Shown: positions 2,671-64,000, counted from the stretch's first letter. The stretch: DNA of 64,000 nucleotides from an uncultured Porphyromonadaceae bacterium (GCA_964512915.1 CAZEKJ010000004.1:41347-105346); one strand, 5' to 3'. Made by a program: numbers and translations. Notes: a model not told the origin generated them from the letters alone.

Positions 2671-2743
2671 GTCATCCCGACGAAAGTCGGGATCCCCAGC
2701 CTCGGAGCAAATGTCAGGAGATCCCGATTTCCATCGGGATGAC
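2671..2743. repeat. Twin tetraloop hairpins (GAAA-loop family), inverted pair
   Basis: H1 gtc-atcccgac-gaaa-gtcgggat (2671-2693). H2 atcccgat-ttcc-atcgggat-gac (2721-2743). Outer gtcat/atgac ends are complementary. The same architecture occurs at 35129-35184 and 62428-62499. Confidence 0.9.
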
Positions 2744-5841: not shown

Positions 5842-7662
5842 TCAGTTTTCCTTCACGCACCGCACCGGCATGTAAATATTTGTTGGGCCGTGGCCTACCC
5901 AAAGGCCCTGGGTTGCCCGGTCGGTATTCCACATCCATATATCCGTCCTCAAATTATTGATATCATAAGGCTCCGTGGTTGAGAAGAACCAGGCTTTCTC
6001 ATAGGTTTCCTTGAAATTATAGACAGTATCGTATGGAGAGAATCCGCTGTACAGAACTGTGAACGTTGCGTAGCCCAGGTCCAGTCCGTTGAAATCATAC
6101 TTACCCCCGATCCGCAGCTCCCGGGCGCCCGACTCTCCGCCGACTGTGGTGATCAATGTCTCCCAGTCGTCCTTGGTGGGCAGTCGCCAGCCGGTCGGAC
6201 AAATAGTTACAAATTCATCATCGGCGCGGTTTACCACCACGGCACCGATCCGGTAGAGCTTGCCCACCTGGTCGCACCACCGGCTCTGTTCCATCAGGCA
6301 AATCCACTGGAGAAATCCTCCCGTAAGCTTCTGGGGTACGATAAAGTTCAGGTTTTGCGACATCCACCATTGGTCGCCGATTTTAACCGTACCGTAATGA
6401 TTCCCGTCGCGGGGATCCCTGAAAAAGCTGGTCGGGTTGGTGTTGGACGAAACGATCACACGCTTGCGGTCGGTTGAGGTAAGCCTTTCCTCATCCCGTA
6501 CCTGCAGCCCGATGTAGTATTCTCCCGGGGAGTCAAACTGATGGTAGGTCACCATCTCCCGGGTAAAAGGAGTATCCCAGGCGCCGTCACCATTGAAGTC
6601 CCAGCGCACCTCCAGTTCGCTCGGAGCCTGATAGTCATCCGAAGAGGACCAGGAACTCAGGTAAAACTGCGTGAGAATGTTCCCATAGTTTGACCCTACC
6701 TCGATTTTTGCTTTAGGGGGAAGGTTTTCATCGGCCACAAAAAACTCCTTAGAGATCTCGCTGAACAGGCGTGTTTCACGGTCATAGACCTTTAGCCTGA
6801 TGATCGCCGGGCCCTTTTGCCGGAATATCACGATCTGCTGTTTTTCAGGAACAGGAAGGGTCCACTCTACCCGGTCGGGCAAAAACCATGCGAACAGCAG
6901 TTCCCGGTTCGGGTATTTGAGATGCTTTGAACCCGATGCATCGAAAAGTATTGTGTCGCCCACACGGATGATCGAATCGGAGATAGAAAAATCCGCAACA
7001 ATCAGCGAATCCTCCATGGTTACAATCAGTTCCCGGCTGTAGGTTGCTGTTTTTCCTGCCGGGTCCTTCACTTCCAGTTTCGGCGTATATAAACCGGCAG
7101 CGTAATACTGGTAGCTGGTCACCGGATTTTTAGAGTAGTCCACGGTCCAGTGCCCGTCGCCCCGAAAATCCCATCGGAATTGGAGCTGGTTCAGTGAATC
7201 CTCGTCATCCAGGGTGAGGCTGGCATCAAACACGAATGAGGTCAGGATATTCCCTCTACCGGGAGTAACGGAAAATTCGGGTTTCGGAGCCGAATATCCC
7301 TGCTCCACCTGGACCATGACCTCCCCGGTGGTCAGTTGTTTCTTTCCATCGGCATATTCAAACTTGACCATGGCGTTCCCCGGTTTCAAAAACCGGTGGG
7401 TAACATTTGATGAAGTGCTGAACGGGGTATCCCAGGTTCCGTCGTTGTCCCAGTCCCAGCGGTAAAAGAGGGTCAACCCTTCCTTTTCACCGGTTACCGG
7501 TTCAACCGCTATCGTGAAATTATCCGTAGTCAGGCCTTTAGCCGGCTTAACGCTGATCGTGAGCTCAGGCAATGCCTCCGGATTCTGATCCTTCCTGCAG
7601 CCGGCCGCAATCAGCACAAGCAGAAGGAAAGCACTAAATCCGGAGAGGTACCCTGATCGCAT
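5842..7662 (-). CDS. Lipoprotein with repeated PKD-like domains and a C-terminal FISUMP (Fibrobacter succinogenes major paralogous) domain
   Basis: Lipobox LIAAGC. Four repeats of the W/RWDF-DG-W pattern (YRWDWDNDGTWD, FRWDFRGDGHW, VRWDFNGDGAWD). C-terminus GNHYGTVKIGDQWWMSQNL...GWRLPTKDDWETL is typical of TIGR02145-type domains. Confidence 0.75.
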   Translation of the reverse strand: MRSGYLSGFSAFLLLVLIAAGCRKDQNPEALPELTISVKPAKGLTTDNFTIAVEPVTGEKEGLTLFYRWDWDNDGTWDTPFSTSSNVTHRFLKPGNAMVKFEYADGKKQLTTGEVMVQVEQGYSAPKPEFSVTPGRGNILTSFVFDASLTLDDEDSLNQLQFRWDFRGDGHWTVDYSKNPVTSYQYYAAGLYTPKLEVKDPAGKTATYSRELIVTMEDSLIVADFSISDSIIRVGDTILFDASGSKHLKYPNRELLFAWFLPDRVEWTLPVPEKQQIVIFRQKGPAIIRLKVYDRETRLFSEISKEFFVADENLPPKAKIEVGSNYGNILTQFYLSSWSSSDDYQAPSELEVRWDFNGDGAWDTPFTREMVTYHQFDSPGEYYIGLQVRDEERLTSTDRKRVIVSSNTNPTSFFRDPRDGNHYGTVKIGDQWWMSQNLNFIVPQKLTGGFLQWICLMEQSRWCDQVGKLYRIGAVVVNRADDEFVTICPTGWRLPTKDDWETLITTVGGESGARELRIGGKYDFNGLDLGYATFTVLYSGFSPYDTVYNFKETYEKAWFFSTTEPYDINNLRTDIWMWNTDRATQGLWVGHGPTNIYMPVRCVKEN

Positions 7663-8133: not shown

Positions 8134-8180
8134 AATCATCGAATCAACGAATCATCAAATCATCAAATCAACGAATCAAC
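8134..8180. repeat. 8-mer tandem array (AATCAWCR) x6
   Basis: aatcatcg aatcaacg aatcatca aatcatca aatcaacg aatcaac. Covers the stop and last three codons of ORF 8168-9196. Confidence 0.9.
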
Positions 8181-17071: not shown

Positions 17072-17119
17072 CACATTGGCAAATTGGTAAATTGGCACAT
17101 TACCACATTGGCACATTAC
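17072..17119. repeat. 8-mer tandem array (CACATTGG-type) x6
   Basis: cacattgg caaattgg taaattgg cacattac cacattgg cacattac. Overlaps the GH92 stop (17116-17118). Confidence 0.9.
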
Positions 17120-19356
17120 TTCATTGAAATTCTCAGCTCCCCGCCAGCCGTGATTTCCTGATGTGTGATGTACATCCGATCGAGTGGTTTGTCATTCAAG
17201 GTGATACTTTTAATATAGAAATTCTGCGGTGTAAGGTTTTCGGCCGTTACCGTGAATTTCTTGTCGCCCGGCAGGTTGATGCTCACTTTGCTGAACGACG
17301 GGGTGCCGATCTGGTAAATTCCGTTGGCGGGGTTCATCGGGTAAAAGCCCATGGCGCTGAACACGTACCAGGCCGACATGGCGCCGCAGTCTTCATTGCC
17401 GCACAGGCCATCGGGCTGGTCGGTATAAAGGGTGGTGCAGATCCGATGGACGATCTCCTGGGTTTTTTCCGGTGCACCGGCGAGGTTATACAGATATGCC
17501 ACATGGTGGCTGGGCTCATTGCCCTGTGCATACTGGCCCACCATGCCGGAAATATCGGGAGAGGCATTGGCGCCTTCTACCTTGGCGGTGGTATTGAACA
17601 ACGAATCGAGCCGGGCCACGAACCGGTCCCGTCCCCCCATCAGGCTGATCAGGTCATCGGGATCCTGGGGAACAAACCAGGTGTACTGCCAGGAGTTGCC
17701 TTCGGTAAAATCGTGCACATCGTGACTGCTGTAAAGCGGATTAAAATTCTGCCGCCAGCTGCCATCAGACATACGGCCGCGCATAAACCGGGTTTCCGGA
17801 TCGAATACATTCCGATAGTTCTTCGACCGGGTCATGAAGTACTGGTAATCTTCTTCCTTTCCGAGTTTCTTTGCCATCTGCGCGATACACCAGTCGTCAT
17901 AGGCATATTCCAGAGTCTGGGATACCGACTGGTTCTCCAGGTCGGCGGGAAGGTACCCGAAAGCCTTGTAGTTTTTAAGTCCGCGCCCGTCATCCAAGGC
18001 ACTCTTCTTCATATCGGAATAAGCCTTCTCATAATCAAAAGGAAATCCCTTGAGAGCTGCATCCACGATAACCGGAATGGCGTGATAACCAATCATGCAA
18101 TTTGTTTCGCATCCCTCCAGGGTCCAGACCGGCAGGAGTCCGCTTTCATCGGCATGGGCCAGCATGGCCTTTATCAGGTCCGGAATACGCTCGGGCTGAA
18201 CCAGGGTAAACAGCGGGTGTGCCGAACGGAAAGTATCCCACAGGGAGTAGACGGTATAGTTATTCCAGCCATCGGCCTGTTTAACCGTCCGTGCGCTGTC
18301 GCTGCCCCGGTACCTGCCGTCAGTATCAGAAAAAAGTGACGGGGCAATCATTGAGTGATAAAGCGCTGTATAAAAGACAGTCTTGAGCCTATTATCCGAT
18401 GTACTGGCTTCGATTTTACCTAATTCCTGATTCCACTTTTCCCGTGCAGCCTTCTTTACTTTATCGAATTTCCACTCGGAATTCTCAGTTCTCAAATTCG
18501 CCAAAGCTCCCTGCTCATCCACCGGAGAGATTCCCACTTTCATCAGCAGTTCGCCTCCTTTGCCAAAGGAGAGGATTGCCTCAGTATATTTTCCGCTCAC
18601 GTTCCTCATTCCGGGGTTCTCGAGTCCGGTTTTATATAGCATAAAAGATGAAATCGGCCGGTTGAAGACGGCTGCAAACCAAACCTGCTGATTGTTGGCC
18701 CACCCTTTGGATTTGCGGTATCCGGTTATCAGGGTATCGTTTTCAACCCTGATAAAGGTGGCAGCAGGGGCATCCCAGTTAATGGCAAAACCCAGGTCGA
18801 GCATGAGGTTGGCCGCCTCTCCCTCGGGATACCGGTACCGGTGCATGGCTGTCCGCTCCGTGGCGGTAAGTTCAACTTTAATGGGATTCTGACGGGTTTC
18901 GGCATCCCGCAGGGTGACCCTGTAATAACCGGGCGAAGCCGATTCATCATCATGGGAGAACACTGCCTTGAACCGCTGGTGAAACTCTTTTCCGCCATGG
19001 TATTCTGAAGCCGGGAGGTTCCGGGTGGTGGGCTGGAACAATATATCAGCCAGGTCTCCGATACCCGTACCGCTAAGATGCTTATGGGAGAAGCCCACGA
19101 TTATCGAATCGGAATAGTTATACCCCGAACACCAGTCCCATCCGTTTGTTCCATTATCAGGGCTCACCTGAACCATGCCAAAGGGGAGTACAGCGCCCGG
19201 AAAGGTATGGCCGTGGGCGGCGGTTCCGATGAAGGGGTTTACGTATTTTGAATAATCTTCCTGGACGGTATCGGAACAAGATGTGAGGAGGAAGGCGAAA
19301 GGAAAAAGGCGAAAGGCGAAAGAAAGACTTAAGACAAAAGACTTTAAAGAGTTCAT
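17116..19356 (-). CDS. GH92 alpha-mannosidase
   Basis: 746 aa. Canonical GH92 N-terminus VNPFIGTAAHGHTFPGAVLPFGMVQVSPDN, with full-length similarity to alpha-1,2-mannosidases. Residues 11-22 of the signal peptide are encoded by a heptamer repeat arm. Confidence 0.9.
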   Translation of the reverse strand: MNSLKSFVLSLSFAFRLFPFAFLLTSCSDTVQEDYSKYVNPFIGTAAHGHTFPGAVLPFGMVQVSPDNGTNGWDWCSGYNYSDSIIVGFSHKHLSGTGIGDLADILFQPTTRNLPASEYHGGKEFHQRFKAVFSHDDESASPGYYRVTLRDAETRQNPIKVELTATERTAMHRYRYPEGEAANLMLDLGFAINWDAPAATFIRVENDTLITGYRKSKGWANNQQVWFAAVFNRPISSFMLYKTGLENPGMRNVSGKYTEAILSFGKGGELLMKVGISPVDEQGALANLRTENSEWKFDKVKKAAREKWNQELGKIEASTSDNRLKTVFYTALYHSMIAPSLFSDTDGRYRGSDSARTVKQADGWNNYTVYSLWDTFRSAHPLFTLVQPERIPDLIKAMLAHADESGLLPVWTLEGCETNCMIGYHAIPVIVDAALKGFPFDYEKAYSDMKKSALDDGRGLKNYKAFGYLPADLENQSVSQTLEYAYDDWCIAQMAKKLGKEEDYQYFMTRSKNYRNVFDPETRFMRGRMSDGSWRQNFNPLYSSHDVHDFTEGNSWQYTWFVPQDPDDLISLMGGRDRFVARLDSLFNTTAKVEGANASPDISGMVGQYAQGNEPSHHVAYLYNLAGAPEKTQEIVHRICTTLYTDQPDGLCGNEDCGAMSAWYVFSAMGFYPMNPANGIYQIGTPSFSKVSINLPGDKKFTVTAENLTPQNFYIKSITLNDKPLDRMYITHQEITAGGELRISMK

Positions 19357-19460
19357 GGGTGATGGGTTTTATCAATGATTACAAATATACACCCAAAGCC
19401 CTCTTTATAACTTAAGATCTTAACTCTTTCTTTCGCCTTTCGCCTTTCGCCTTTCGCCTT
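19292..19460. repeat. Hairpin element with AAGGCGA heptamer arms enclosing the GH92 start codon
   Basis: Left arm 19292-19326 (aaggcgaaaggaaaaaggcgaaaggcgaaagaaag). Right arm 19427-19460 (ctttctttcgcctttcgcctttcgcctttcgcct). About 100-nt core with cttaag motifs and the GH92 ATG (19356-19354). Confidence 0.9.
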
Positions 19461-20434
19461 TATTTCTTCCCTTTTGCAAACAGATCCCACGCCAGCGAGC
19501 TGGCCCCGAGCACCGCGGAATTCTTGCTATTGAGCCCTGAGGGCAGGAGTTTGACTTTACCCTTATAGATAAACAGCAGGTTATCTTCAAATGCGCGGAG
19601 TGTTGGTTCCATAAGGAGTCCCTTTGCCAGGGTGAGCCCGCCGAAAAGAAAAATAGCTTCGGGGTTGGTATGGGCGACTACATCGGCCAGCTTCAGTCCG
19701 AGCATTTCACCTGTGTGCTCAAAAGCGCGGATAGCCAGAATGTCACCACGCTCAGCTGCTTCTGCAATATTCAGGGAGGTCATCTGATTGAAGCTAAGGT
19801 CCCTCAGTTCCGAGGGTTCAAGGGAGTCCGACATGATTTTGAAAAGGGTGCGCTTAAGACCGGTCGCTGACACGTATGTTTCGAGGCAGCCCATTCGTCC
19901 GCATCCGCACTCACGGTTGGTACGGCCCGGCCGTACAATGGTGTGCCCCACTTCGCCGGCGAAACCGTCCTGACCATAGACCAGTTTTCCGTCAATCACA
20001 ATGCCGGATCCGACCCCGGTACCGAGTGTAATGACCACGAAATTCTTCATCCCCTGTGCCGCTCCGTAAACCATTTCGCCCACTGCCGCAGCATTGGCGT
20101 CGTTGGTTACCAGCACCGGCCAGTCGGTATGCTCATGAATAAGATCTGCCAGCGGGGTTATTCCCTTCCACGCCAGGTCGGCCGGATGTTCAATGGTTCC
20201 CTTGTTGATGTTCCCCATCGGTGCCCCGATGCCTATGCCAATGACCTCAAGCGGTTCCGCTACTTTCTTTTGAAGCATTTTTACTTTCTCCCACATGGCT
20301 GCAACAAAAACTTCCGGTTCCGCAAAATTCACGGTAGAAATCCTGTCTTCTGCCAAAAAATGTCCATGGGAATCCACAAAAGCAAAGTCGGTGTTAGTGC
20401 CGCCGATATCAATGCCGAGCGCAACTTTTTTCAT
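19460..20434 (-). CDS. ROK family sugar kinase (glucokinase-like)
   Basis: 324 aa. DIGGTNTDFA ATP-binding N-terminus and the ROK zinc motif CGCGRMGCLETYVS. Confidence 0.85.
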   Translation of the reverse strand: MKKVALGIDIGGTNTDFAFVDSHGHFLAEDRISTVNFAEPEVFVAAMWEKVKMLQKKVAEPLEVIGIGIGAPMGNINKGTIEHPADLAWKGITPLADLIHEHTDWPVLVTNDANAAAVGEMVYGAAQGMKNFVVITLGTGVGSGIVIDGKLVYGQDGFAGEVGHTIVRPGRTNRECGCGRMGCLETYVSATGLKRTLFKIMSDSLEPSELRDLSFNQMTSLNIAEAAERGDILAIRAFEHTGEMLGLKLADVVAHTNPEAIFLFGGLTLAKGLLMEPTLRAFEDNLLFIYKGKVKLLPSGLNSKNSAVLGASSLAWDLFAKGKK

Positions 20435-21935: not shown

Positions 21936-24251
21936 ATGGAAATGACCAATCCTTACCAGTCAGCTGAACCCGGCCGTTTGGATCGGGTAGCTTCTGACAT
22001 CCTCCGCAACGTCAGGCTCAACAAGGGATTCATGATCTGGATGGGTTTCCTGTCCGTTGGACTTCTTGCCTGCCTTTTCGCCTACACCATACAGCTCCGC
22101 GAGGGCCTCGGGGTTACCGGTCTCCGCGACCATACCAGCTGGGGCATGTATATTGCCAACTTCGTTTTCTTTGTAGCCTCCTCCCTGATCGGCATGCTGA
22201 TCAGCTCCGTTCTCGGGCTGATCGGATTCAAGTGGGTTATCCCGATTGCACGAATTGCTGAAATAATAGCGGTGGCTTTCGCGGCAGTGGCAGGCCTCGT
22301 GATTATCAGCGACATGGGCCGCCCCGACCGGCTTCCCTATGTGTTCCTGCATGGAAGGCTGCAGTCTCCCATTCTTTGGGATGTGACTGTGGTCACCACC
22401 TATTTTCTTGTCAGCTTCCTGCTCTACTTCCTGCCGATGCTGCCCGACCTGGCAGTAGCGAAAGGCAGGATTACACATCTGCCAAAGTGGCTCCAATGGC
22501 TTTATAATATTGCCTCTTTCAACTGGATCCACAAATCGGAACAATATAAGATTCTGTTCCGGATGACGCGAACTCTGCTGATATTAATTGTACCCCTGGC
22601 CTTCGCCATTCATACGGTCACCTCCTGGCTTTTTGCAGTAACTGTAAGGCCCGGGTGGGACAGTACGATCTTTGGCCCCTATTTTATCTCAGGCGCCTTT
22701 GTTTCGGGCTCAGCCGCGGTGATCATCGCTATGTTTTTCTTCAGGAACAGCTTCAGGCTGCATAACTATTTAACGCCCTATCATTTTGATAAAATGGCCA
22801 AACTTCTTGGTTTGGTGGCCATTGTCTATTTTTATTTTAATCTGAACGAATTTCTGGTTCCGGTCTATAAACTCAAGAAATTTGAAGCGCTTCACCTTCA
22901 GGAGCTGTTTACTGGAAGTCACGCACTCCTCTTCTGGGGCACTCAGTTACTCGGACTTATTATCCCGATATTTCTCCTGTTCCTTAAGCCGATGCGGAAA
23001 CCGCTTCCGCTCACCATCATTGCACTTTTTGTCTTTGCCGGCTCCTGGCTCAAGCGGTTCATTATTGTGGTTCCGGTTCAGGAACATCCTTTCCTGCCCA
23101 AACAGAACGTTCCCGTGGAGTGGATGGTCTACACCCCCACCCTCATCGAAGTAGCTGTCACGGTTGCTTCCATGATCATGGTCCTGATGATTATCACGAT
23201 CCTGGCGAAGACCTTTCCGGTATTGCCGATCGTGGAGATTGCCGCGGAAGAGGGACCGCAGAACGCAGACAGAGGACTGCAGGAAGACAGTCAAAACGAA
23301 GTAACTGGTAACAGAGGTTCTCGGAAGAACTCAGGCGGTCTGCCGTCTGCGGTCTGCGGTCTTTTTCTGCTGATGCTGGTACCTGCTGTCTCGCAGGCAC
23401 AAACCTGGGAAACACCAGCAGAAAAAAAGACCAAGCTCGCCGATTTCAAGTTCGACGAGACGACCGTTAAGGCCGGCGCCGTGATTTACCAGGTAAACTG
23501 CAAATCGTGCCATGGCGATCCGGGCAAGAATAATGTTACCCAGCTGGTACCTCTTCCCCCTGATATCGTTTCAGAGCAGTTGCAAAGAAATACCGACGGA
23601 GAGCTATATTATAAACTGCAAACGGGGAAAGGCCAGATGCCAGCCTTTGGTATGGCGCTGACCTCGCCTGAACTGTGGCAGGTGATTGCTTACATGAGGA
23701 GTTTTAACCCAAATTACACCCAGGAGGTCGCCACAAAGGGGGGCCTTGACACACGCTACAGTGATGTGAAAATTACCTTGGCGGCGATGAATGATACGAT
23801 CCTGAAGGCCACCATATCGGGCCTGGAAAACAATATCCGCATTCCCATCCCCGCGGTTGAAGCCAGGGTTTTTGCGCACCGGTATTTTGGTCACCTTCCC
23901 CTGGATGAACCGAAATCCTCCGATCCTGCCGGCATCATTCTTTTCAACATTCCTTCCGATCTACCCGCCGATACGGCCGGAAGGGTCAAACTGATGGTCA
24001 CGCTGACGAATGAAGACCAGTTTGGTGCCGTTGAAACTGACAGCATCCTTGAATTCGGGAAGGAAACACATCCGGTAAGCCTCCGCGCTAAGAGGGCCAT
24101 GTGGAACACGGGTAACAGAGCCCCGATCTGGCTGACTATCGCCTACCCGCTCGGCCTCCTCATTGTGCTCGCAGTCATCGGTTCCATCCTCCTTCAACTG
24201 CGGGAAATATTCTATATCGGTAAAAGGAGCAAGAACGAAAATAAATTGTAA
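21936..24251 (+). CDS. NrfD/PsrC/ActC-like quinol-interacting membrane subunit fused to a monoheme cytochrome c domain and a C-terminal anchored domain
   Basis: 771 aa in one uninterrupted frame. About 440 aa of polytopic NrfD-like sequence (GVTGLRDHTSWGMYIANFVFFVASS...), then a charged linker, a TM segment (SAVCGLFLLMLVPAV), heme site CKSCHG with distal GQMPAF, about 150 aa of unknown fold, and a final TM followed by KRSKNENKL. Confidence 0.75.
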   Translation: MEMTNPYQSAEPGRLDRVASDILRNVRLNKGFMIWMGFLSVGLLACLFAYTIQLREGLGVTGLRDHTSWGMYIANFVFFVASSLIGMLISSVLGLIGFKWVIPIARIAEIIAVAFAAVAGLVIISDMGRPDRLPYVFLHGRLQSPILWDVTVVTTYFLVSFLLYFLPMLPDLAVAKGRITHLPKWLQWLYNIASFNWIHKSEQYKILFRMTRTLLILIVPLAFAIHTVTSWLFAVTVRPGWDSTIFGPYFISGAFVSGSAAVIIAMFFFRNSFRLHNYLTPYHFDKMAKLLGLVAIVYFYFNLNEFLVPVYKLKKFEALHLQELFTGSHALLFWGTQLLGLIIPIFLLFLKPMRKPLPLTIIALFVFAGSWLKRFIIVVPVQEHPFLPKQNVPVEWMVYTPTLIEVAVTVASMIMVLMIITILAKTFPVLPIVEIAAEEGPQNADRGLQEDSQNEVTGNRGSRKNSGGLPSAVCGLFLLMLVPAVSQAQTWETPAEKKTKLADFKFDETTVKAGAVIYQVNCKSCHGDPGKNNVTQLVPLPPDIVSEQLQRNTDGELYYKLQTGKGQMPAFGMALTSPELWQVIAYMRSFNPNYTQEVATKGGLDTRYSDVKITLAAMNDTILKATISGLENNIRIPIPAVEARVFAHRYFGHLPLDEPKSSDPAGIILFNIPSDLPADTAGRVKLMVTLTNEDQFGAVETDSILEFGKETHPVSLRAKRAMWNTGNRAPIWLTIAYPLGLLIVLAVIGSILLQLREIFYIGKRSKNENKL

Positions 24252-24260
24252 GATTCAATT

Positions 24261-24318
24261 AACCGGTAACCGGCAACGGGTAACCGGCAACCAGTTTTAA
24301 CCTGTAACCAGTAACAAG
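24261..24318. repeat. RGYAACY heptamer array
   Basis: aaccggtaaccggcaacgggtaaccggcaaccag...aacctgtaaccagtaacaag, between the NrfD-cyt c stop and the DoxX start. Confidence 0.9.
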
Positions 24319-27195: not shown

Positions 27196-27807
27196 ATGAC
27201 GAACCCAATGCACGACGAACATCACGATCACCTGGGATCCAAGATGGGGATGTGGCTGTTCATTTTCACCGAACTGTTCCTTTTTGGAGGATTGTTCCTG
27301 GTATATGCCGTTTTCAGAGCCAAATATGGCGAAGATTTCCACCATGCAGCTGAAGAGTTGAACGTCTTTATCGGAACGCTCAATACGGTGGTGCTGCTGA
27401 TCAGCAGTATGACCGTTGCCATGTCGATCTCAGCCATCCAGAAAGGTGACTCAGGAAGAGCGATCAGGCTGCTGCTCCTCACGATAGTTCTGGCTCTGGT
27501 TTTCATGGTTAACAAATACTTCGAATGGGGACATAAATTCGAGTTCAAACTCTATCCCGGATCACCGGTCCTTGGAAACCTGCCAAAAGGTGAGCTTCTT
27601 TTCTTCGGGCTCTATTTTATGATGACGGGACTGCATGCCCTCCACGTGATAATTGGTTGTGTCCTGCTGGGAATCACCATCCCGAAGATTGCCAAAAAGC
27701 AGGTCACCAGTGAACGCTTCACCTTTCTGGAAAACGCAGGGCTATACTGGCACCTGGTGGATTTTATATGGATATTCCTGTTTCCGATGATGTATCTTAT
27801 TACATGA
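27196..27807 (+). CDS. ctaE: Cytochrome c oxidase subunit III
   Basis: 203 aa. MGMWLFIFTELFLFGGLF and the C-terminal YWHLVDFIWIFLFP are typical of subunit III. Confidence 0.85.
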   Translation: MTNPMHDEHHDHLGSKMGMWLFIFTELFLFGGLFLVYAVFRAKYGEDFHHAAEELNVFIGTLNTVVLLISSMTVAMSISAIQKGDSGRAIRLLLLTIVLALVFMVNKYFEWGHKFEFKLYPGSPVLGNLPKGELLFFGLYFMMTGLHALHVIIGCVLLGITIPKIAKKQVTSERFTFLENAGLYWHLVDFIWIFLFPMMYLIT

Positions 27808-27925
27808 TGGGTTTCGGGTATCAGGTATCGGGTTTGGGGTTTGGGGTTTGAGGTTTGGGGTTTGAGGTTTGAGGTTTGGGGTTTATTTGAGATTTGTTTT
27901 TTGAGGTTTGAGATTTGAAAATACA
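27808..27925. repeat. G/T-rich GGTTTGR/GGGGTTT array between coxIII and coxIV
   Basis: gggtttggggtttggggtttgaggtttggggtttgaggtttgaggtttggggttt... Four GGGG runs lie within 27830-27884 on the coding (+) strand. Confidence 0.9.
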
Positions 27926-31093: not shown

Positions 31094-31109
31094 AGTGTAG
31101 AATTTAAAT

Positions 31110-31266
31110 GGCCTCCCTGCGGTCGGCTAACAGGCCCTTCGGGCTAAAAGGGGCTTCGCCCTAACAGGCATTTGGCAATTTCTCTATTAGCGCGAAGCGC
31201 CTGTTAGGAGCGCAGCGACCTCTTAGGAGCGAAGCGACCTATTAGCGAGCGCAGCGAGCCTATTAT
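31110..31266. repeat. Modular linker-plus-mini-hairpin element, copy 1
   Basis: Left half: cctccctgcggtcggc-taacagg-cccttcgggc-taaaagg-ggcttcgccc-taacagg. Right half: tattag-cgcgaagcgc-ctgttagg-agcgcagcga-cctcttagg-agcgaagcga-cctattag-cgagcgcagcgag-cctatta. Confidence 0.9.
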
Positions 31267-31267
31267 A

Positions 31268-33212: not shown

Positions 33213-33234
33213 GCTAAATTGTTAATTAATATTT

Positions 33235-33404
33235 CTAAAAGGCTCGGCTTTAGCCTCGCTAAAAGGTCGCTGCGCTCCTAAAAGGGGCTGAAGCCCTAAC
33301 TCGCACGACGGTTGCCTCTCTATTAGCGCGAAGCGCCTGTTAGCGACCGCAGGGAGCCTTTTAGCGAGGCGTTAGCCGAGCCTCTTAGGAGTGAAGCGAC
33401 CTGT
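33235..33404. repeat. Modular linker-plus-mini-hairpin element, copy 2
   Basis: ctaaaagg-ctcggctttagcctcgc-taaaagg-tcgctgcgctc-ctaaaagg-ggctgaagccc-taac ... tattag-cgcgaagcgc-ctgttag-cgaccgcagggag-ccttttag-cgaggcgttagccgag-cctcttagg-agtgaagcga-cctgtt. Confidence 0.9.
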
Positions 33405-35128: not shown

Positions 35129-35184
35129 GTCATCCTGGCGAAAGCCAGGATCTCCCAGGGGATCCCGACTTTCGTCGGGATGAC
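35129..35184. repeat. Twin tetraloop hairpins (GAAA-loop family)
   Basis: gtc-atcctggc-gaaa-gccaggat (35129-35151) and atcccgac-tttc-gtcgggat-gac (35162-35184). Confidence 0.9.
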
Positions 35185-41079: not shown

Positions 41080-41260
41080 CAGGTCGCTGCGCTCGCTAAA
41101 AGGCCTCCCTGCGGTCGGCTAATAGGCCCTTCGGGCTAATAGGGGCTTCGCCCTAACAGGCAATTGTGTTCATGCTCTATTAGCCCGAAGGGCCTATTAG
41201 CCGACCGCAGGGAGGCCTCTTAGCGAGGCGCCAGCCGATCCTCTTAGGAGCGCAGCGACC
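41077..41260. repeat. Modular linker-plus-mini-hairpin element, copy 3 (best long hairpin)
   Basis: taacagg-tcgctgcgctc-gctaaaagg-cctccctgcggtcggc-taatagg-cccttcgggc-taatagg-ggcttcgccc-taacagg ... tattag-cccgaagggc-ctattag-ccgaccgcagggagg-cctcttag-cgaggcgccagccgatc-ctcttagg-agcgcagcga. Three module pairs are exactly complementary. The first TAA is the GT4 stop. Confidence 0.9.
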
Positions 41261-41277
41261 CATTTATTTTAATTACC

Positions 41278-41907
41278 ATGCCAAAAGATCGTACCCACCC
41301 CACCCTCCTGCCTTCCCCCAGCCTCGCTACTGCCGGCTGCGATGAGGCGGGCCGCGGCTGCCTGGCCGGGCCGGTGTTCGCCGCCGCGGTGATCCTGCCG
41401 GCTGGGTTTACGCATCCCGATCTCAACGATTCCAAGCAGATGAGCATGAAGAACCGCAACCGGCTGCGTTTGGTGATCGAGGATTCGGCGCTGGCCTGGG
41501 CCGTAGCCCGGGTCGAGGCAGAAGAGATTGATGAGATCAACATTCTCAATGCCAGCATTCTGTCCATGCATCGGGCCCTATCGGAATTAAAAATAAAACC
41601 GGAATTGCTCCTGATCGACGGTCATCGGTTCAAACCCTGGTCCGATGTTCCACACCGTTGTGAAATAAAGGGTGATGGGCGATTCCTTTGCATCGCCGCC
41701 GCCTCCGTACTGGCCAAAACCCACAGGGATGAATACATGCTGGGAATCCATCAGGAGTTTCCTCATTATCACTGGGATCACAACATGGGCTACCCCACAC
41801 GGGAACATCGGGATGCGATACGCCGTGAAGGGATCACTCCGCATCACCGGAAGAGTTTCAGGCTGCTCGACGGGCAGATGGAGATCCCGTTTATGATTGA
41901 CGATTGA
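41278..41907 (+). CDS. rnhB: Ribonuclease HII
   Basis: 209 aa with canonical [25 protein letters not shown] and ASVLAK blocks. The last codons and the stop lie in a GATTGAC array. Confidence 0.9.
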
Positions 41908-41930
41908 CGATTGACAATTGACGATTTGAT
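41895..41930. repeat. GATTGAC heptamer array x5
   Basis: gattgac gattgac gattgac aattgac gatttga. Encodes the last residues (IDD) and the stop of RNase HII. Confidence 0.9.
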
Positions 41931-43640: not shown

Positions 43641-43826
43641 AAACAGGTCGCTGCGCTCCTAAAAGGCCTCCCTGCGGTCGGCTAAAAGGCTCCCTTCGGT
43701 CGCTAACAGGCGCTTCGCGCTAATAACGCTTTATAGCTATTGATTGTTAGGGCGAAACCCCTTTTAGCCGACCGCAGGGAGGCCTTTTAGGAGCGCAGCG
43801 ACCTGTTACCGAGCGAAGCGAGGACA
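43638..43826. repeat. Modular linker-plus-mini-hairpin element, copy 4
   Basis: aaacagg-tcgctgcgctc-ctaaaagg-cctccctgcggtcggc-taaaagg-ctcccttcggtcgc-taacagg-cgcttcgcgc ... ttag-ggcgaaacccc-ttttag-ccgaccgcagggagg-ccttttagg-agcgcagcga-cctgtta-ccgagcgaagcgagg. Fills the whole convergent spacer. Confidence 0.9.
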
Positions 43827-54883: not shown

Positions 54884-54969
54884 CGTGAGGCGTGACGCGT
54901 GATGCGAAAAACCGGTAACTGGTAACCGGCAACCAGCAACCAGCAACCAGCAACTAGTAACCAGCAACC
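54884..54969. repeat. CGTGANS x3 followed by RGYAACY x8
   Basis: cgtgagg cgtgacg cgtgatg cg aaaaacc, then ggtaact ggtaacc ggcaacc agcaacc agcaacc agcaact agtaacc agcaacc. The last units encode AGY-stop of GH29 (54954). Confidence 0.95.
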
Positions 54970-59377: not shown

Positions 59378-59531
59378 AAGGCAGAAGGCAGAGGGCAGAA
59401 GGCAAAAATTAGGACGAAGAAAAATGAAAAAAGAAGGAAACTGCTTCTAATCCAACTTGTTACTTAACTTGATTCTTAAGGATTAAGGACTTAAGACTAA
59501 TTTTTGCCTTCTGCCCTCTGCCCTCTGCCTT
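59378..59531. repeat. Hairpin element (GGCAGAR arms, 35-bp inverted repeat with 1 mismatch), copy A
   Basis: Left arm 59378-59412 aaggcagaaggcagagggcagaaggcaaaaattag. Right arm 59497-59531 is its complement apart from one base. 84-nt core. Confidence 0.95.
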
Positions 59532-59568: not shown

Positions 59569-60696
59569 ATGACCCGCCACGAACGACTTCTTCGATCCCT
59601 CCGCGGCCTCCCGGTCGATCGCCCACCCGTCTGTTTCTACGAAATAAACGGCTACGACGAGCATCCGGAAGATCCTGATCCGTTCAATATTTTCTCCCAT
59701 CCCTCCTGGAAACCTCTAATCTACCTGGCCCGGGAGAAAACCGACCGGATCATCATGCGGGGCGTGGCTTTCAAGGAGATCGCCCCCGACCCGATCGGCC
59801 ACATTGCCGCCGATCAAACCACCCTAAAAAACGGCTCCCGGTACATCCGGCGAACCGTTCATGCGGGCAGGCGCATCCTGACCATGGAGACCCGTCAGGA
59901 TCCGGATATCAACACCATCTGGACCACCGAGCCGCTGCTCAAGGATCTGGATGATCTGGATGCGTTCCTTGAACTCCCCGTTTTCGGTGCCGGTGAAACC
60001 GTGAATGCCATTGAATTCCTTAAAGTTGAAGCCGATATCGGAGATACAGGTTTGGTCATGATCGACACGCCCGATCCGCTTTGCCTGGCTGCACTCCTCT
60101 TCGACATGAGCAATTACACCATGGTTGCCCTCACCGAACCCGAGCGCTTTCATAAATTACTGCAACGGTTCTCCGAGGTTCTCCTTGCCAAAACGGAGGA
60201 AGTTGCAAAACTCCTCCCCGGCCGCCTCTGGCGCATTTACGGTCCGGAGTTCGCCTCCCCGCCCTACCTGCCGCCTTATCTGTTCCGTGAATATGTATCC
60301 CGATATGTTGGCCCGATGATCGACCTGATCCACCAATCGGGCGGGTTTGCCCGGGTTCACTGTCATGGCAACATCCGCGACATCCTCGATGATATTGCAG
60401 CCATGGGTGCCGATGCCATTGACCCGATCGAGCCCCCGCCCCAGGGCGATGTAACGCTAAAATATGTAAGGGAACGCTACGGCGACCGCCTTGTCCTCTT
60501 CGGCAACCTCGAATGTGCCGATCTCGAAAACCTCCCGACTTCCGAATTTGAAAAGAAAATCCGCCAGGCCCTCGACGAAGGCACCGCCGGCTCCGGCCGC
60601 GGCTTCGTACTTATGCCCTCTGCTTCGCCATATGGGAGGGTGCTGGGGGAGCGTGCAATGAGGAACTATGAGGCGATGATCCGGGTAATACAATAA
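59569..60696 (+). CDS. Uroporphyrinogen decarboxylase (URO-D) family protein, MtaA/CmuA-like
   Basis: 375 aa. N-terminal MTRHERLLRSLRGLPVDRPPV and a C-terminal HCHGN...DPIEP pattern typical of the URO-D superfamily. Flanked by two inverted copies of one repeat element. Confidence 0.65.
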   Translation: MTRHERLLRSLRGLPVDRPPVCFYEINGYDEHPEDPDPFNIFSHPSWKPLIYLAREKTDRIIMRGVAFKEIAPDPIGHIAADQTTLKNGSRYIRRTVHAGRRILTMETRQDPDINTIWTTEPLLKDLDDLDAFLELPVFGAGETVNAIEFLKVEADIGDTGLVMIDTPDPLCLAALLFDMSNYTMVALTEPERFHKLLQRFSEVLLAKTEEVAKLLPGRLWRIYGPEFASPPYLPPYLFREYVSRYVGPMIDLIHQSGGFARVHCHGNIRDILDDIAAMGADAIDPIEPPPQGDVTLKYVRERYGDRLVLFGNLECADLENLPTSEFEKKIRQALDEGTAGSGRGFVLMPSASPYGRVLGERAMRNYEAMIRVIQ

Positions 60697-60841
60697 GGCA
60701 GAGGGTAGAAGGCAGAAGGCAGAAATTAGTCTTAAGTCCTTAATCCTTAAGAATCAAGTTAAGTAACAAGTTGGACTAGAAGCAGTTTATTTCTTTTCAC
60801 CTATTTCTTCTTACTAATTTCTGCCTTCTGCCCTCTGCCTT
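60695..60841. repeat. Hairpin element (GGCAGAR arms), copy B, inverted relative to copy A
   Basis: Arms 60695-60729 and 60814-60841. The 84-nt core (60730-60813) is the reverse complement of the copy A core (first 45 nt identical, about 85 percent overall by eye). Confidence 0.95.
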
Positions 60842-60886: not shown

Positions 60887-62386
60887 ATGAAACTGCCCGT
60901 CTCCGTCAATAACCGGCTTTCCATCACCGGCGCCATCGTGGCCAGCATCAGTCTGATGTTCATCATCTTCTTTTTTATCATCAGCCTGTTCTATACCGAA
61001 GGCGGTAACTACCTGGGCCTATTCACCTACATTATCCTTCCGGTATTCCTGATTCTCGGCCTGATCCTGATACCCATCGGGATGGTTGGGAAAATGAAGC
61101 GGATGAAACGAGGTATTGAAGAGGTAAAAGGTAAGCCCTGGATCATAGATTTTACCGATAAACGGCACCGGAATGCCACATTTGTTTTTGCCATGGGTAC
61201 GGTAGTTCTTCTCTTTCTATCGGGGATTGGAAGCTATGAGGCCTTTCATTACAGCGAATCCGTTCAGTTCTGCGGTACAACCTGCCACAAGGTTATGGAG
61301 CCGGAACACACTGCCTATCAGGGATCTGAACACGCCAACGTTGCCTGCGTAGAATGCCATGTTGGCGCCGGCGCCGACTGGTATATCAGATCGAAACTTT
61401 CCGGACTCCGACAGGTTTGGGCGGTTATCACCAATAGTTACCCTCGCCCGATACCTACCCCGATAGTGGATCTGCGGCCTGCGCGGGAAACCTGTGAACA
61501 CTGCCACTGGCCGGCGAAGTTCTATGCGCACAAACTGGTATCAGAGAAACACTATCTGGCCGATTCTGCCAATACCGAGTGGAATATAGACCTTCGGATG
61601 AAAATCGCCGCCTCACACAGCGCCCTGGGAAATACCGGCGGAATCCACTGGCATATCAATCCTGATATTAAAATCGAATACATTGATGCCCTGGGCGACC
61701 GTGAGATGCTTCCGTGGGTCCGTAGTATTAACCTGATCACCGGCGATACCACGATATACATGGATTCCGAGAACCCGGCCAGCGACTCAATCATGCATGC
61801 TGTTGAACCCCGTACCATGGACTGCATGGATTGCCACACACGCCCGTCGCACAAATACCGGACTCCACAAACATTTGTAGATGAAGCGATTGCAGCAGGC
61901 GAGATATCCGTTACCCTGCCGGAAATTAAAAAAATCAGCATGGAAGTCCTGCGCACAGAGTACTTCAACCGCCAGGGCGCCCAGGACACCATCCGCCAAA
62001 CCATCGATGCATTCTACAAGGATACCTATCCCGATATTTATGCCAACCGCAAATCCGACGTGGATCAGGCTATTGCAGGAGTTTTAGCTGGATATGCCAA
62101 AAACATATTCCCCGAAATGAAAGCCAGCTGGGATGCGTACCCTGATCACATCGGACATATTGAATACGGCGGCTGTTTCCGGTGCCACAACGATAAACAT
62201 CAGAGTAAATCGGGTAAAGTAATCTCACGAGACTGCAACCTCTGCCACAACATCATGACTCAGGGGACTCCGCAAAACCTGGAAGTGGCTCCGTTTAATG
62301 GTCAACTGGAATTCAAACACCCCGTTGACATTGAGGATGCATGGAAGGAGATGGCTTGTACGGAGTGCCACAGAAAGCTGTACTAG
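60887..62386 (+). CDS. Membrane-anchored multiheme cytochrome c (NapC/NirT-like N-terminus, seven heme sites)
   Basis: 499 aa with N-terminal TM segments. Six CxxCH sites (CVECH, CEHCH, CMDCH, CFRCH, CNLCH, CTECH) plus one CGTTCH (CX3CH) at the position of the NapC-type FCxxCH. Confidence 0.75.
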   Translation: MKLPVSVNNRLSITGAIVASISLMFIIFFFIISLFYTEGGNYLGLFTYIILPVFLILGLILIPIGMVGKMKRMKRGIEEVKGKPWIIDFTDKRHRNATFVFAMGTVVLLFLSGIGSYEAFHYSESVQFCGTTCHKVMEPEHTAYQGSEHANVACVECHVGAGADWYIRSKLSGLRQVWAVITNSYPRPIPTPIVDLRPARETCEHCHWPAKFYAHKLVSEKHYLADSANTEWNIDLRMKIAASHSALGNTGGIHWHINPDIKIEYIDALGDREMLPWVRSINLITGDTTIYMDSENPASDSIMHAVEPRTMDCMDCHTRPSHKYRTPQTFVDEAIAAGEISVTLPEIKKISMEVLRTEYFNRQGAQDTIRQTIDAFYKDTYPDIYANRKSDVDQAIAGVLAGYAKNIFPEMKASWDAYPDHIGHIEYGGCFRCHNDKHQSKSGKVISRDCNLCHNIMTQGTPQNLEVAPFNGQLEFKHPVDIEDAWKEMACTECHRKLY

Positions 62387-62427
62387 TTGCCAGTTGCCGG
62401 TTACCGGTTACCGGTTGGGCCAGAGCG
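62384..62427. repeat. GGTTRCC heptamer array ending in ccggttgggccaga
   Basis: tagttgccagttgccggttaccggttaccggttgggccagagc. Same terminal motif as 44957-44978. Its first tag is the cytochrome stop codon. Confidence 0.9.
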
Positions 62428-62499
62428 GTCATCCTGACGGAAGTCAGGATCCCCTTGCGGTGCATTGAGGGTTGGGATTCCTGCTTTCGCCGGAATGAC
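62428..62499. repeat. Twin tetraloop hairpins (GGAA / TTTC loops)
   Basis: gtc-atcctgac-ggaa-gtcaggat (62428-62450) and attcctgc-tttc-gccggaat-gac (62477-62499, one mismatch). Confidence 0.85.
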
Positions 62500-63451: not shown

Positions 63452-63541
63452 TTTATACTTTGAAGTATGAAGTTAGAATTGAGAGATTCGAATGCAGAAT
63501 TCCGAATTCCGAAATATCAGATTCAAGTACCTCCTTCTTCA

Positions 63542-63575
63542 ATTAGCACATTAGCACATTAGCATATTAGCACAT
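63542..63575. repeat. 8-mer tandem array (ATTAGCAC) x4
   Basis: attagcac attagcac attagcat attagcac attta. Abuts the GRE stop codon (63576-63578). Confidence 0.95.
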
Positions 63576-64000
63576 TTACAGAATTTCATTCTGCGTACGT
63601 TCGATAACCTCGATCTGAAGATCATCGTTCATGTCGTTGAAATAGTCGCTGTAGCCGGCCATCCGAACGAGGAGATCCTTATACTCATCGGGAGTCTGGC
63701 GGGCGGCCATGAGGGTGGCGGTGTCAACGATGTTGAACTGAACATGGTGCCCGCCGAGGGTGAAATAACTGCGGATCAGCTGACCCAGTTTTGCAATATC
63801 CTGATCGCGTTTCAGCAGGCTCGGCAGGAATCGCAGGTTCAGCAGGGTTCCGCCAGATTTGGTCTGGTCGAGCTTCGAAAGCGACCGTATTACAGCGGTG
63901 GGGCCATGGGTGTCGCAACCGTGCGACGGTGAGGTGCCGTCGGAGATCGATTTTCCGGCCAGCCTGCCGTTCGGCATGGCACCCAGCACCTTGCCGAAAT
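63576..64000 (-). CDS. Glycyl radical enzyme (PFL/glycerol dehydratase family), C-terminal part; 5' end beyond window
   Basis: Glycine-radical motif LLVRMAGYSDYF near the C-terminus. The frame stays open to the right window edge, and the Met at 63989 is internal. Confidence 0.85.
   Translation of the reverse strand, partial: FGKVLGAMPNGRLAGKSISDGTSPSHGCDTHGPTAVIRSLSKLDQTKSGGTLLNLRFLPSLLKRDQDIAKLGQLIRSYFTLGGHHVQFNIVDTATLMAARQTPDEYKDLLVRMAGYSDYFNDMNDDLQIEVIERTQNEIL

Follow-up and report, generated by a model that had tools for sequence, protein, structure and literature searches.

Why should a heptamer array that starts in the stop codon of one gene be mirrored by a complementary array inside the coding sequence of the next? 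The question is raised by a 64,000-nucleotide (nt) stretch of DNA from an uncultured Porphyromonadaceae bacterium (GCA_964512915.1, CAZEKJ010000004.1:41347-105346), called here the window; coordinates refer to this whole stretch unless another locus, designated by an L number, is named. An inverted pair of AAGGCGA-type arrays links the gene of a ROK-family sugar kinase to that of a GH92 alpha-mannosidase, both on the minus strand. An earlier note on this DNA had described a hairpin of about 35 bp enclosing the GH92 start codon and had proposed that gain or loss of repeat units switches the mannosidase on and off. The account that we tentatively favour, at a little under even confidence, is a different one: an old and conserved inverted array pair, belonging to a lineage-wide class of 7/8-nt arrays anchored at stop codons, whose pyrimidine arm was absorbed by the GH92 reading frame and which would act on read-through RNA.

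The ROK gene (19460..20434, minus strand; found in the open reading frame [ORF] list and by translation; Pfam PF00480 ROK, E = 2.8e-60) ends ...AAA GGG AAG AAA TAA, with its stop at 19462-19460, and the final A of the TAA is the first base of the upstream (5') arm, which the repeat finder placed at 19401..19460 on the minus strand. The outer part of this arm, 19427-19460, is a perfect (AAGGCGA) x 4.6, and the inner part, 19401-19426, is weaker and includes CTTAAG. On the minus strand the upstream array is followed by AAGAAAGAGTTAAGATCTTAAGTTATAAAGAG, by a 49-nt loop (19352..19400) that carries a promoter-like box, the 5' leader and the GH92 ATG (19354..19356), and then by GH92. The downstream (3') arm (19292..19351, minus strand) corresponds to codons 2-22 of the GH92 gene (17116..19356, minus strand; 746 aa; Pfam PF17678 and PF07971). 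Its array, 19292-19326, reads TTTCGCC TTTCGCC TTTTTCC TTTCGCC and encodes LSFAFRLFPFAF. The coordinates, translation and residue numbering in the earlier note all proved correct, residues 11-22 being encoded by 19326-19291. Tandem Repeats Finder scored the coding-arm array (19292-19322) at 48, with 4.4 copies, 83% matches and just two perfect consecutive units, and the upstream array (19430-19461) at 64, with 4.6 copies and 100% matches. The two-unit 14-mer AAGGCGAAAGGCGA occurs four times in the window against 0.04 expected, a count reached in none of 100 shuffles, and among 175 loci it is confined to the window and to L169.

The arms (19292-19351 and 19401-19460) are 60 nt each, 82% complementary and 49 nt apart. 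Pairing over all 60 positions gives 49 Watson-Crick pairs, 4 G.U pairs and 7 mismatches. In the arrays, which make up the outer 36 positions, 34 pairs are Watson-Crick and 1 is G.U. The predicted RNA fold of 19270-19480 on the minus strand reaches -93.1 kcal/mol, compared with -45.9 +/- 4.3 for shuffled sequences (z = -10.9; none of 200 shuffles as good). When the 120 nt upstream of each of the 45 window genes were paired with its first 105 coding nt, GH92 alone paired (z = -8.0; the next gene had -2.9). The hairpin of the earlier note is thus confirmed, at greater length than claimed and with the ROK stop codon as its 5' end. That it encloses the start codon is true of the DNA; whether the ATG sits in the loop of an mRNA hairpin is uncertain.

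With terminal inverted repeats, a total of 169 nt and no transposase, the element has some outward features of a mobile sequence. Its flanks, GAAATA|AAGGCGA... and ...TCGCCTT|CCTCCT, contain no direct repeat indicative of a target-site duplication, and BLAST of 19280-19475 against the window returned its own two arms and otherwise merely 10-11-nt matches. An intrinsic terminator, that is, a G+C-rich stem with a U-run, was not found at the arms, and the sequence after the downstream arm is CCUCCUCACAUC. Rfam yielded no family at gathering score anywhere in the window; sub-threshold matches to plant miRNA precursors on both strands reflect the generic shape of a long hairpin. A CRISPR array was set aside, as spacers of fixed length are absent, and so was a riboswitch or attenuator, there being no Rfam match and no leader peptide.

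The start of GH92 determines whether the downstream arm is coding. The gene begins ATG AAC TCT TTA AAG TCT TTT GTC TTA AGT CTT TCT TTC GCC TTT CGC CTT TTT CCT TTC GCC TTC CTC CTC ACA TCT TGT, and its ATG at 19356 is the first start of the ORF and the sole one able to give Cys27 a signal peptide, because no other in-frame ATG, GTG or TTG precedes Met61. A mis-called start was set aside, since no alternative in-frame start lies ahead of the lipobox. The 746-aa orthologue P0122 begins MESLKSLVFVLSFAFRLSPFAFLLISC, with its start at the equivalent position; this shared start and the aligned lipobox Cys indicate that the array arm is translated. Type II signal peptides (PROSITE PS51257) have K or R near the N terminus, a hydrophobic stretch and a lipobox [LVI][ASTVI][GAS]C with its Cys at 15-35. 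The 27-codon lipoprotein signal peptide of GH92, MNSLKSFVLSLSFAFRLFPFAFLLTSC (19276..19356, minus strand), has K5, R16, the hydrophobic segment LFPFAFLL and the lipobox LTSC, with Cys27 at 19278-19276. In all orthologues the lipobox Cys is followed by 10 residues and then by (Y/W/F)V(N/D)PFIGT, aligning gap-free, and the Pfam GH92 N-terminal domain begins at residue 38. In the GH92 frame a perfect (TTTCGCC)n has a 7-residue period, FAFRLSP, in which the window's variant unit TTTTTCC turns S to F. The signal peptide is 27-31 residues long in array-bearing orthologues versus 17-20 in array-free ones; that of the window, with its array-encoded core FAFRLFPFAF, exceeds those of array-free orthologues by about 8-10 residues. 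The 3' arm of this element family is always pyrimidine-rich, and its in-frame translation gives F/L/S/P/A. The proposal of the earlier note that the repeat was co-opted as signal-peptide coding sequence is supported by these lengths and by an in-frame 39-nt insert of a different heptamer in a sister species, described below.

The -7 promoter consensus of Bacteroidetes is reportedly TAnnTTTG, as Bayley and co-workers are said to have described in 2000. The loop contains an exact match, TATATTTG (19382..19389, minus strand), 25 nt before the GH92 ATG, and the gene at 45122 carries TAnnTTTG at the same 25-nt distance. The window has 22 matches, 8 of them within its non-coding 9%, where the motif is about 4-fold enriched. 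In L169 and L161/L170 it precedes the ATG by 21-25 nt, and in L166 TACATTTG does so by 19 nt; a block TATATTTGTGGT is common to L169 and L170, though the arms of L170 are new. A scan for sigma-70 promoters and terminators gave counts not above those of shuffles, the sigma-70 model not being applicable to Bacteroidetes. RNA starting just past the -7 box is predicted to be almost unstructured (-8.9 kcal/mol over 126 nt, versus -93 with the upstream arm). The usual GH92 mRNA probably starts inside the loop. Because the -7 box in the loop is conserved, this mRNA probably lacks the upstream arm, so that the hairpin would form only in ROK read-through RNA. The conserved box favours a start downstream of the upstream arm, the position that the earlier note had itself named as evidence against its proposal.

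Comparison with orthologous junctions gave an indication of the age of the element. Exact look-ups of the window's own ROK and GH92 proteins returned no recorded entry. Among species-representative genomes the best GH92 matches are 77-79% identical, and a metagenome scan with GH92 found nothing closer than 76%, L081 being without an array; close relatives were reached through a protein search and its 90% clusters. The ROK-to-GH92 gene order is conserved in relatives. Among distant ones, ROK and GH92 overlap by ATGA in L003 and are separated by a short, array-free spacer in L081. In L169 (GCA_964416825.1), whose GH92 is 92% identical to the window's at the amino acid level, the element is the same, with a 104-nt spacer versus 103 nt in the window and four units per arm in both. 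The spacers are 89% and the upstream arms 91% identical, and the loop blocks GGGCTTTGGGTGTATATTTGT and ATTGATAAAACCCATCACCCATG are unchanged, while identity at four-fold degenerate sites is only 47% (ROK) and 61% (GH92); the variant unit sits in opposite arms in the two genomes. In L163-L165, with 77% amino acid identity in GH92 and 38-41% identity at four-fold sites, the arms are still of the AAGGCGA type and form 32 Watson-Crick and 2 G.U pairs of 36, around a different, shorter loop. In L162 the coding arm is kept (FLSPLAFLLSPSC), the upstream arm is swapped for (TTAATAG/TGAATAG) x 7, and pairing is lost. With the same unit number across genomes whose synonymous sites are near saturation, the arm pair is, as judged from these alignments, old.

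In one sister lineage both arms were replaced jointly by a different unit. L161 and L170-L172 belong to Bacteroidetes bacterium GWF2_49_14, the closest relative by four-fold sites (71-75% identical). In L161/L170, ten AAGGCAC/AAGGCGC units follow the ROK stop, and a 39-nt block lying in frame within the signal peptide, made up of (CTTGTGC) x 4.5 and TTGATTCTGAC, encodes CALCLVPCAL; these new arms form 33 Watson-Crick and 2 G.U pairs of 35. The old TTTCGCC arm is left only as a decayed TTTTGCCTTTTTCC between the new arms. A simple insertion, in L170, of a MITE (miniature inverted-repeat transposable element) was rejected, because the decayed old coding arm lies inside the new arms and not outside them. 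L170 also has, at about 5940-5985 (L161 1880-1925), a terminator-like hairpin, GCTGACAA-N10-TTGTCAGC, followed by TTTGTTATATTTG, between the upstream array and the -7 box, and its two complementary arrays may be on separate transcripts.

Pairing was maintained or renewed in some of these lineages. The z score of the spacer-to-CDS (coding sequence) duplex is -8.3 in the window, -5.5 in L169, -7.9 in L170 and -8.5 in L163, and it is 0.2, 0.0 and -1.0 in the array-free or arm-replaced orthologues L162, L166 and L004. In four aligned arm pairs 94.4% of cells pair, and 9 of 36 pairs change on both sides, versus 3.7 +/- 1.3 in shuffled sets (0/500 reach 9) and 0-2 in slid controls; with only four sequences, aligned by hand in a register chosen by the analyst, this co-variation is support and not proof. 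The element at the ROK-GH92 junction is present in three to four related lineages and absent in more distant ones, which fits one old insertion or growth in place.

The pair belongs to a class that pervades the window. Tandem Repeats Finder detected 67 arrays in the 64 kb, 46 of them in the 9% that is non-coding, and 20 non-coding arrays start between -20 and +15 nt from a stop codon. More than 15 different units occur, including AAGGCAG, AGGGCAGA, CGTGACG, AACCGGT, GTTGCCG, GATTGAC, GGTTTGA, ATTAGCAC and an 11-mer; AAGGCGA has no G-runs, and the window is not dominated by one G-rich unit capable of forming G-quadruplexes. Many arrays are paired with their own complement across 27-100 nt. Six such pairs (9317/9477, 19292/19461, 46927/47036, 49029/49180, 59378/59531 and 60697/60841) share one plan, a purine array (RRGGCRR)n, a CTTAAG segment, a loop and the mirror image, and they lie between divergent, convergent and tandem genes. 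Arrays persist with diverged units at orthologous stops, for example after the GH92 stop, where an octamer array of the TGTGCCAA type as read on the gene's strand (17072..17119, itself listed without a strand; Tandem Repeats Finder) places an array of the same class at the other end of the gene, with orthologous arrays in L169 and L170. Different kinds of array follow the ROK stop in the window, L169, L170, L162, L163, L176, L002 and L004, and eight different situations are found there across lineages; AAGGCGA, AAGGCAC, TTAATAG/TGAATAG, CGTGACA, GTGACGA and GGAGAAT arrays occupy the site by lineage. Likewise, one cytochrome-gene TAG stop is followed by a GTTGCCG/GTTACCG array in the window (62386-62417) and by an AAGGCAG array in L175 (6355-6466). 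On this comparison, one array seems to give way to another at a fixed site immediately behind the stop codon. Among the 45 window genes an array arm occupies the N terminus in GH92 only.

In the account that we favour, slippage would have built the array following the stop codon, and inverted duplication or template switching would have written its complement downstream, where the copy would have been tolerated in GH92 because a T/C-rich array read in frame encodes F/L/S/P/A. GH92 would be transcribed from its own promoter in the loop, its normal mRNA lacking the upstream arm and having an open start region. ROK read-through RNA alone would contain both arms and fold, hiding GH92 codons 1-22 in a duplex of about 36 bp; such a predicted duplex is the kind of substrate that a double-strand RNase (RNase III) cuts. 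The hairpin would thereby insulate GH92 expression from ROK transcription and would not be a slippage switch.

Several observations weigh against this account. The putative promoter is one 8-nt motif, and the window, L169 and L170 all lack a TTTG that could serve as a -33 box at a distance of 19-21 nt from the -7 box. In L163, with a 59-nt spacer and no exact -7 box in it, the two genes are probably co-transcribed, and a duplex that destroyed read-through RNA would then silence GH92. The terminator-like hairpin of L170 would leave little read-through RNA, yet that lineage evolved fresh arms. Mismatches carry no clear RNA-strand signature (roughly 8 G.U versus 4 A.C pooled, numbers too small to be informative). 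Homogenisation within an array sometimes breaks pairing, as the placement of the variant unit in opposite arms in the window and L169 illustrates, which argues against strict selection for a perfect stem. Finally, the persistence of units could result from concerted evolution within and between arrays, without any function.

The last point leads to a serious rival, to which we give a real but minor share of our confidence: the pair would be a by-product of mutation in a slippage-prone lineage, copied into the 5' coding region by template switching or inverted duplication and surviving as an acceptable signal core, with its conservation due to coding constraint and concerted evolution. Arrays do occur in almost every spacer regardless of gene orientation, hairpins of the same family separate genes in divergent, convergent and tandem arrangement, arrays at a given stop codon give way to unrelated ones from species to species, and the homogenised variant unit creates mismatches; L162, which replaced its upstream arm and kept the coding arm, indicates that the gene works without the hairpin, and template switching is known to create hairpins (PMC8794818). 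This purely mutational, functionless origin sits less well with a non-coding upstream arm that is 88-91% conserved where four-fold sites are 38-61% identical, with the second, independent complementary pair at the same place in L170, and with arms whose nucleotides are better conserved than the rest of the gene, though signal peptides usually drift freely. Two further readings assign the pairing a role in translation. Coupling within a bicistronic ROK-GH92 mRNA, which we consider distinctly unlikely, would have the duplex close the GH92 initiation region until a ribosome ending translation at the ROK TAA opens the stem from its base, an arrangement replacing the ATGA overlap of distant relatives. 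Initiation in Bacteroidetes depends on unstructured start regions rather than on Shine-Dalgarno pairing, the overlap in L003 makes coupling likely to be ancestral, in all lineages possessing the stem it starts precisely at the stop codon, and L163 keeps the hairpin with its 59-nt spacer and no exact promoter box. However, three lineages conserve the -7 box in the loop, a terminator-like hairpin separates the arms of L170, a ribosome at the stop would unwind no more than the first unit or two of the 36-bp stem, and arrays abut stop codons even where no gene follows, so contact with the stop is not specific to coupling. Alternatively, the purine-rich tail of the ROK mRNA 3' untranslated region (UTR) might pair in trans with GH92 codons 11-22 on a separate mRNA, like an antisense regulator derived from a 3' UTR. 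The order in L170, namely array, terminator-like hairpin with T-run, -7 box, ATG and complementary array, would put arms that are 94% complementary on different RNAs. Yet a defined ROK 3' end is without evidence, the window and L169 have no recognisable terminator between arm and promoter, pairing deep in a coding region is a weak block on initiation, and arrays offer no direct precedent, so that we regard this as very unlikely.

Switching at the DNA level is less probable still. In the contingency locus of the earlier note, GH92 would be switched off or on at high frequency as the coding arm gained or lost a 7-nt unit. Its arithmetic holds: the unit length is not a multiple of three, and simulated removal or addition of one unit gives a stop after 36 or 68 codons, respectively. 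The sole irregularity among assemblies that might speak for it, an NN gap with apparently one extra unit in L171, is in the non-coding upstream arm. Otherwise the unit number is constant across species and independent assemblies: 4 + 4 in the window and L169 alike despite four-fold sites only 47-61% identical, with identical coding arms in four assemblies of the GWF2_49_14 species (L161/L170/L171/L172) and in three of the L163 species (L163/L164/L165). No frameshifted allele of plus or minus one unit was present among the assemblies compared, and the 120 homologues listed are all intact, save for truncations at a contig end or by gene calling. The coding arm, moreover, has 4.4 imperfect copies with two perfect ones in a row and the upstream arm 4.6, whereas natural hmw tracts have at least 11 units (PMC12721329), and arrays are ubiquitous in window spacers and do not mark particular genes. 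High-frequency switching is thus highly improbable. Least probable of all is an invertible promoter, or inverton, with the arms as recombination sites between which the loop, with promoter and ATG, flips. Inverted repeats do flank the promoter-like box TATATTTG in a Bacteroidetes genome, and inverting the loop (19352-19400) also puts an ATG in the GH92 frame (ATG ATT ACA AAT ATA CAC CCA AAG CC|C TCT TTA AAG...). However, the loop has the same orientation in every assembly examined (window, L169, L161, L170-L172, L163-L165), the invertible segment would be only 49-97 bp, slippery array arms are unlike known recombinase sites, and similar pairs lie between convergent genes, where a promoter is absent.

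Other arrays of the window were recorded alongside those at GH92. Examples lie at 1184-1220, 2756-2784, 8134-8180, 24260-24292, 27810-27918, 41895-41926, 54910-54969 and 63542-63576. The array itself supplies the stop codon where its unit contains TAA, TGA or TAG, as in ATG ATT GAC GAT TGA at 41893-41907, and three genes end in a few array-encoded residues (MIDD*, QLIR* and VAGY*). Heptamer arrays of at least four copies in coding DNA are found only at 19292-19322 and at 23335-23362, the latter being GCGGTCT x 4.0 in an NrfD-like gene (21936..24251). The longest array of the window, (GGTTTGA/GGTTTGG) x ~13 at 27810-27918, begins 2 nt past the stop at 27807. On the gene's strand it is rich in G, and, as with the Xanthomonas and Nostoc repeats, G-quadruplexes could form from it.

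Larger repeats are also present. Two hairpins of about 150 nt with AAGGCAG arms (59378-59531 and 60697-60841), roughly 90% identical and in opposite orientation, flank a URO-D-family gene (59569..60696). The 59378-59531 copy is missing from the orthologous spacer of two relatives: GWF2_49_14 has a 39-nt spacer (L173/L174 3459-3503), and GCA_964416825.1 has an unrelated 247-nt element in its place (L175 3251-3503). This hairpin family thus looks mobile, or at least gained and lost. In a second repeat family (31094-31267, 33213-33404, 41080-41277 and 43641-43826), CTAAAAGG/CTATTAGC-type motifs alternate with short G+C-rich hairpins; its inverted repeats match at 98% (41092-41142/41177-41227) and 100% (43642-43689/43760-43807). 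The small hairpin repeat GTCATCCCGACGAAAGTCGGGATC has four copies in the window (2671-2694, 2720-2743, 35161-35184 and 62428-62451; 0 expected) and also adjoins the ROK-GH92 spacer array of the relative L176 (about 1378-1410). Contigs L177 and L178 of that relative begin inside this repeat, suggesting that assemblies break there. Downstream of the GH92 stop lies an inverted repeat with 104-nt arms (16772-16875/16919-17022; 78% complementary), which L170 lacks behind its GH92 stop. The unrelated insert at a non-orthologous site in L175 (3251-3503) starts with the repeat's terminal motif, GGGACAAAATGA, as well, and the repeat is, from its sequence, probably another mobile element. Lastly, four-fold identity between the window and GCA_964416825.1 forms a mosaic, at 0.47-0.64 around ROK, GH92 and URO-D and 0.84-0.87 in the cytochrome and radical-SAM genes, with the cytochrome/radical-SAM spacer (window 63452-63575, L175 7373-7496) 99% identical. 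This pattern of divergence suggests recent recombination between lineages.

How does the locus relate to known systems? By analogy, the closest mechanistic match is the hmw repeat of Haemophilus influenzae. Upstream of hmw1A/hmw2A the transcript of an (ATCTTTC)n array folds into a long hairpin, a duplex that RNase III cuts and that sets expression (PMC12721329). The likeness, a heptamer array as hairpin arm upstream of a gene for a surface or exported protein, makes the comparison drawn in the earlier note apt in form; the long variable tract of hmw is absent here. The tract there has at least 11 units and varies in number, against 4 units here whose number does not change between species. The hmw array is confined to the 5' UTR, and its pairing partner is a G-rich non-repeat region, whereas here both arms are arrays, one at a stop codon and one translated, and transcription probably starts inside the loop.

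At the level of the class, the closest match by analogy is with the intergenic heptamers of Xanthomonas (GGGAATC) and Nostoc (GGGGA(T/C)T), which prefer about 4 units and have no known function (Rehm et al. 2015, PMC4692102). These show a strong bias to positions within 50 bp of a stop codon or overlapping it, and occasionally an inverted arrangement (PMC4692102). Among the long simple repeats of bacteria, heptamers are the most frequent (Mrazek 2007, as quoted in PMC4679880), and TAACTGA repeats (MacGregor 2015, PMC4679880) and cyanobacterial STRR are related. The window shares with Xanthomonas and Nostoc abundant intergenic arrays of about 4 units at or overlapping stop codons and rare in coding DNA. 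Those genomes have one dominant unit each; 64 kb of this genome, from another phylum, contain many unrelated 7-, 8- and 11-nt units. Complementary array pairs are common here, and no arm serving as a signal-peptide core is reported there.

Other likenesses concern the hairpin and its origin. Neisseria Correia elements combine promoters with hairpins cleaved by RNase III (PMC2649163; PMC10969869). They, too, are small intergenic inverted repeats that can carry promoters, and their transcripts fold, are cleaved or protected by RNase III and change the expression of neighbours; they differ in having fixed terminal repeats, a TA target duplication and hundreds of near-identical copies, whereas the arms of our element are arrays, a duplication is not visible, and the window contains no close copy of the element. 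Rickettsia palindromic elements resemble it as palindromic repeats translated in frame within genes (PMC10969869), but they insert in many unrelated genes as surface loops, and here one coding arm in one window gene forms the hydrophobic segment of a signal peptide. Template switching, which can create and maintain hairpins (PMC8794818), is known for multi-nucleotide changes that match inverted arms and for one-step inverted copies (PMC8794818, PMC8604942; quasipalindrome mutagenesis, PMC7202029). Such changes are consistent with the joint arm replacement in L170 and with units that differ from one another by two bases. The published cases concern unique inverted repeats; here the repeats are tandem arrays for which the mechanism is inferred. 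BrickBuilt, a MITE found in Porphyromonas gingivalis (PMC4596501), is likewise a Bacteroidetes intergenic inverted repeat with tandem repeats and promoter activity; its 22-23-bp minisatellite is interior and the element strictly intergenic, whereas here the arrays are the arms and one is coding. Our literature search returned no report of such arrays in Bacteroidales, nor of an array arm as signal-peptide core. The locus combines known kinds and is not a new category.

Stop-adjacent intergenic heptamers have been catalogued for decades in Xanthomonas, Nostoc, Beggiatoaceae and others without a known function. An array pair that is conserved, and was once jointly replaced, at saturated synonymous divergence lets the question of selection for pairing be asked, and the comparative series makes the function of such repeats testable at one defined locus; the related GWF2_49_14 genome derives from groundwater at a site that has been sampled well, so tests on transcripts and reads can be made. 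For annotators, repeat-rich N termini in these genomes can be real, and a 7-nt repeat in a gene does not by itself make that gene phase-variable. To judge by its reading frame, GH92 clearly exemplifies how a non-coding repeat can furnish functional coding sequence, in this instance an export signal's hydrophobic core, with a second, independent in-frame birth in a sister species. A bolder reading, possible although we consider it unlikely, is that this Bacteroidales lineage harbours a self-renewing system, in which stop-anchored arrays are re-copied in inverted form downstream by template switching and recruited as signal-peptide sequence, and in which their duplex sets how independently neighbouring genes are expressed, whether it forms in cis, within read-through RNA, or in trans, joining one mRNA's 3' UTR to the 5' coding region of the following mRNA. 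If true, this would represent a new route from intergenic repeats to N-terminal coding sequence, together with an undescribed wiring of adjacent genes.

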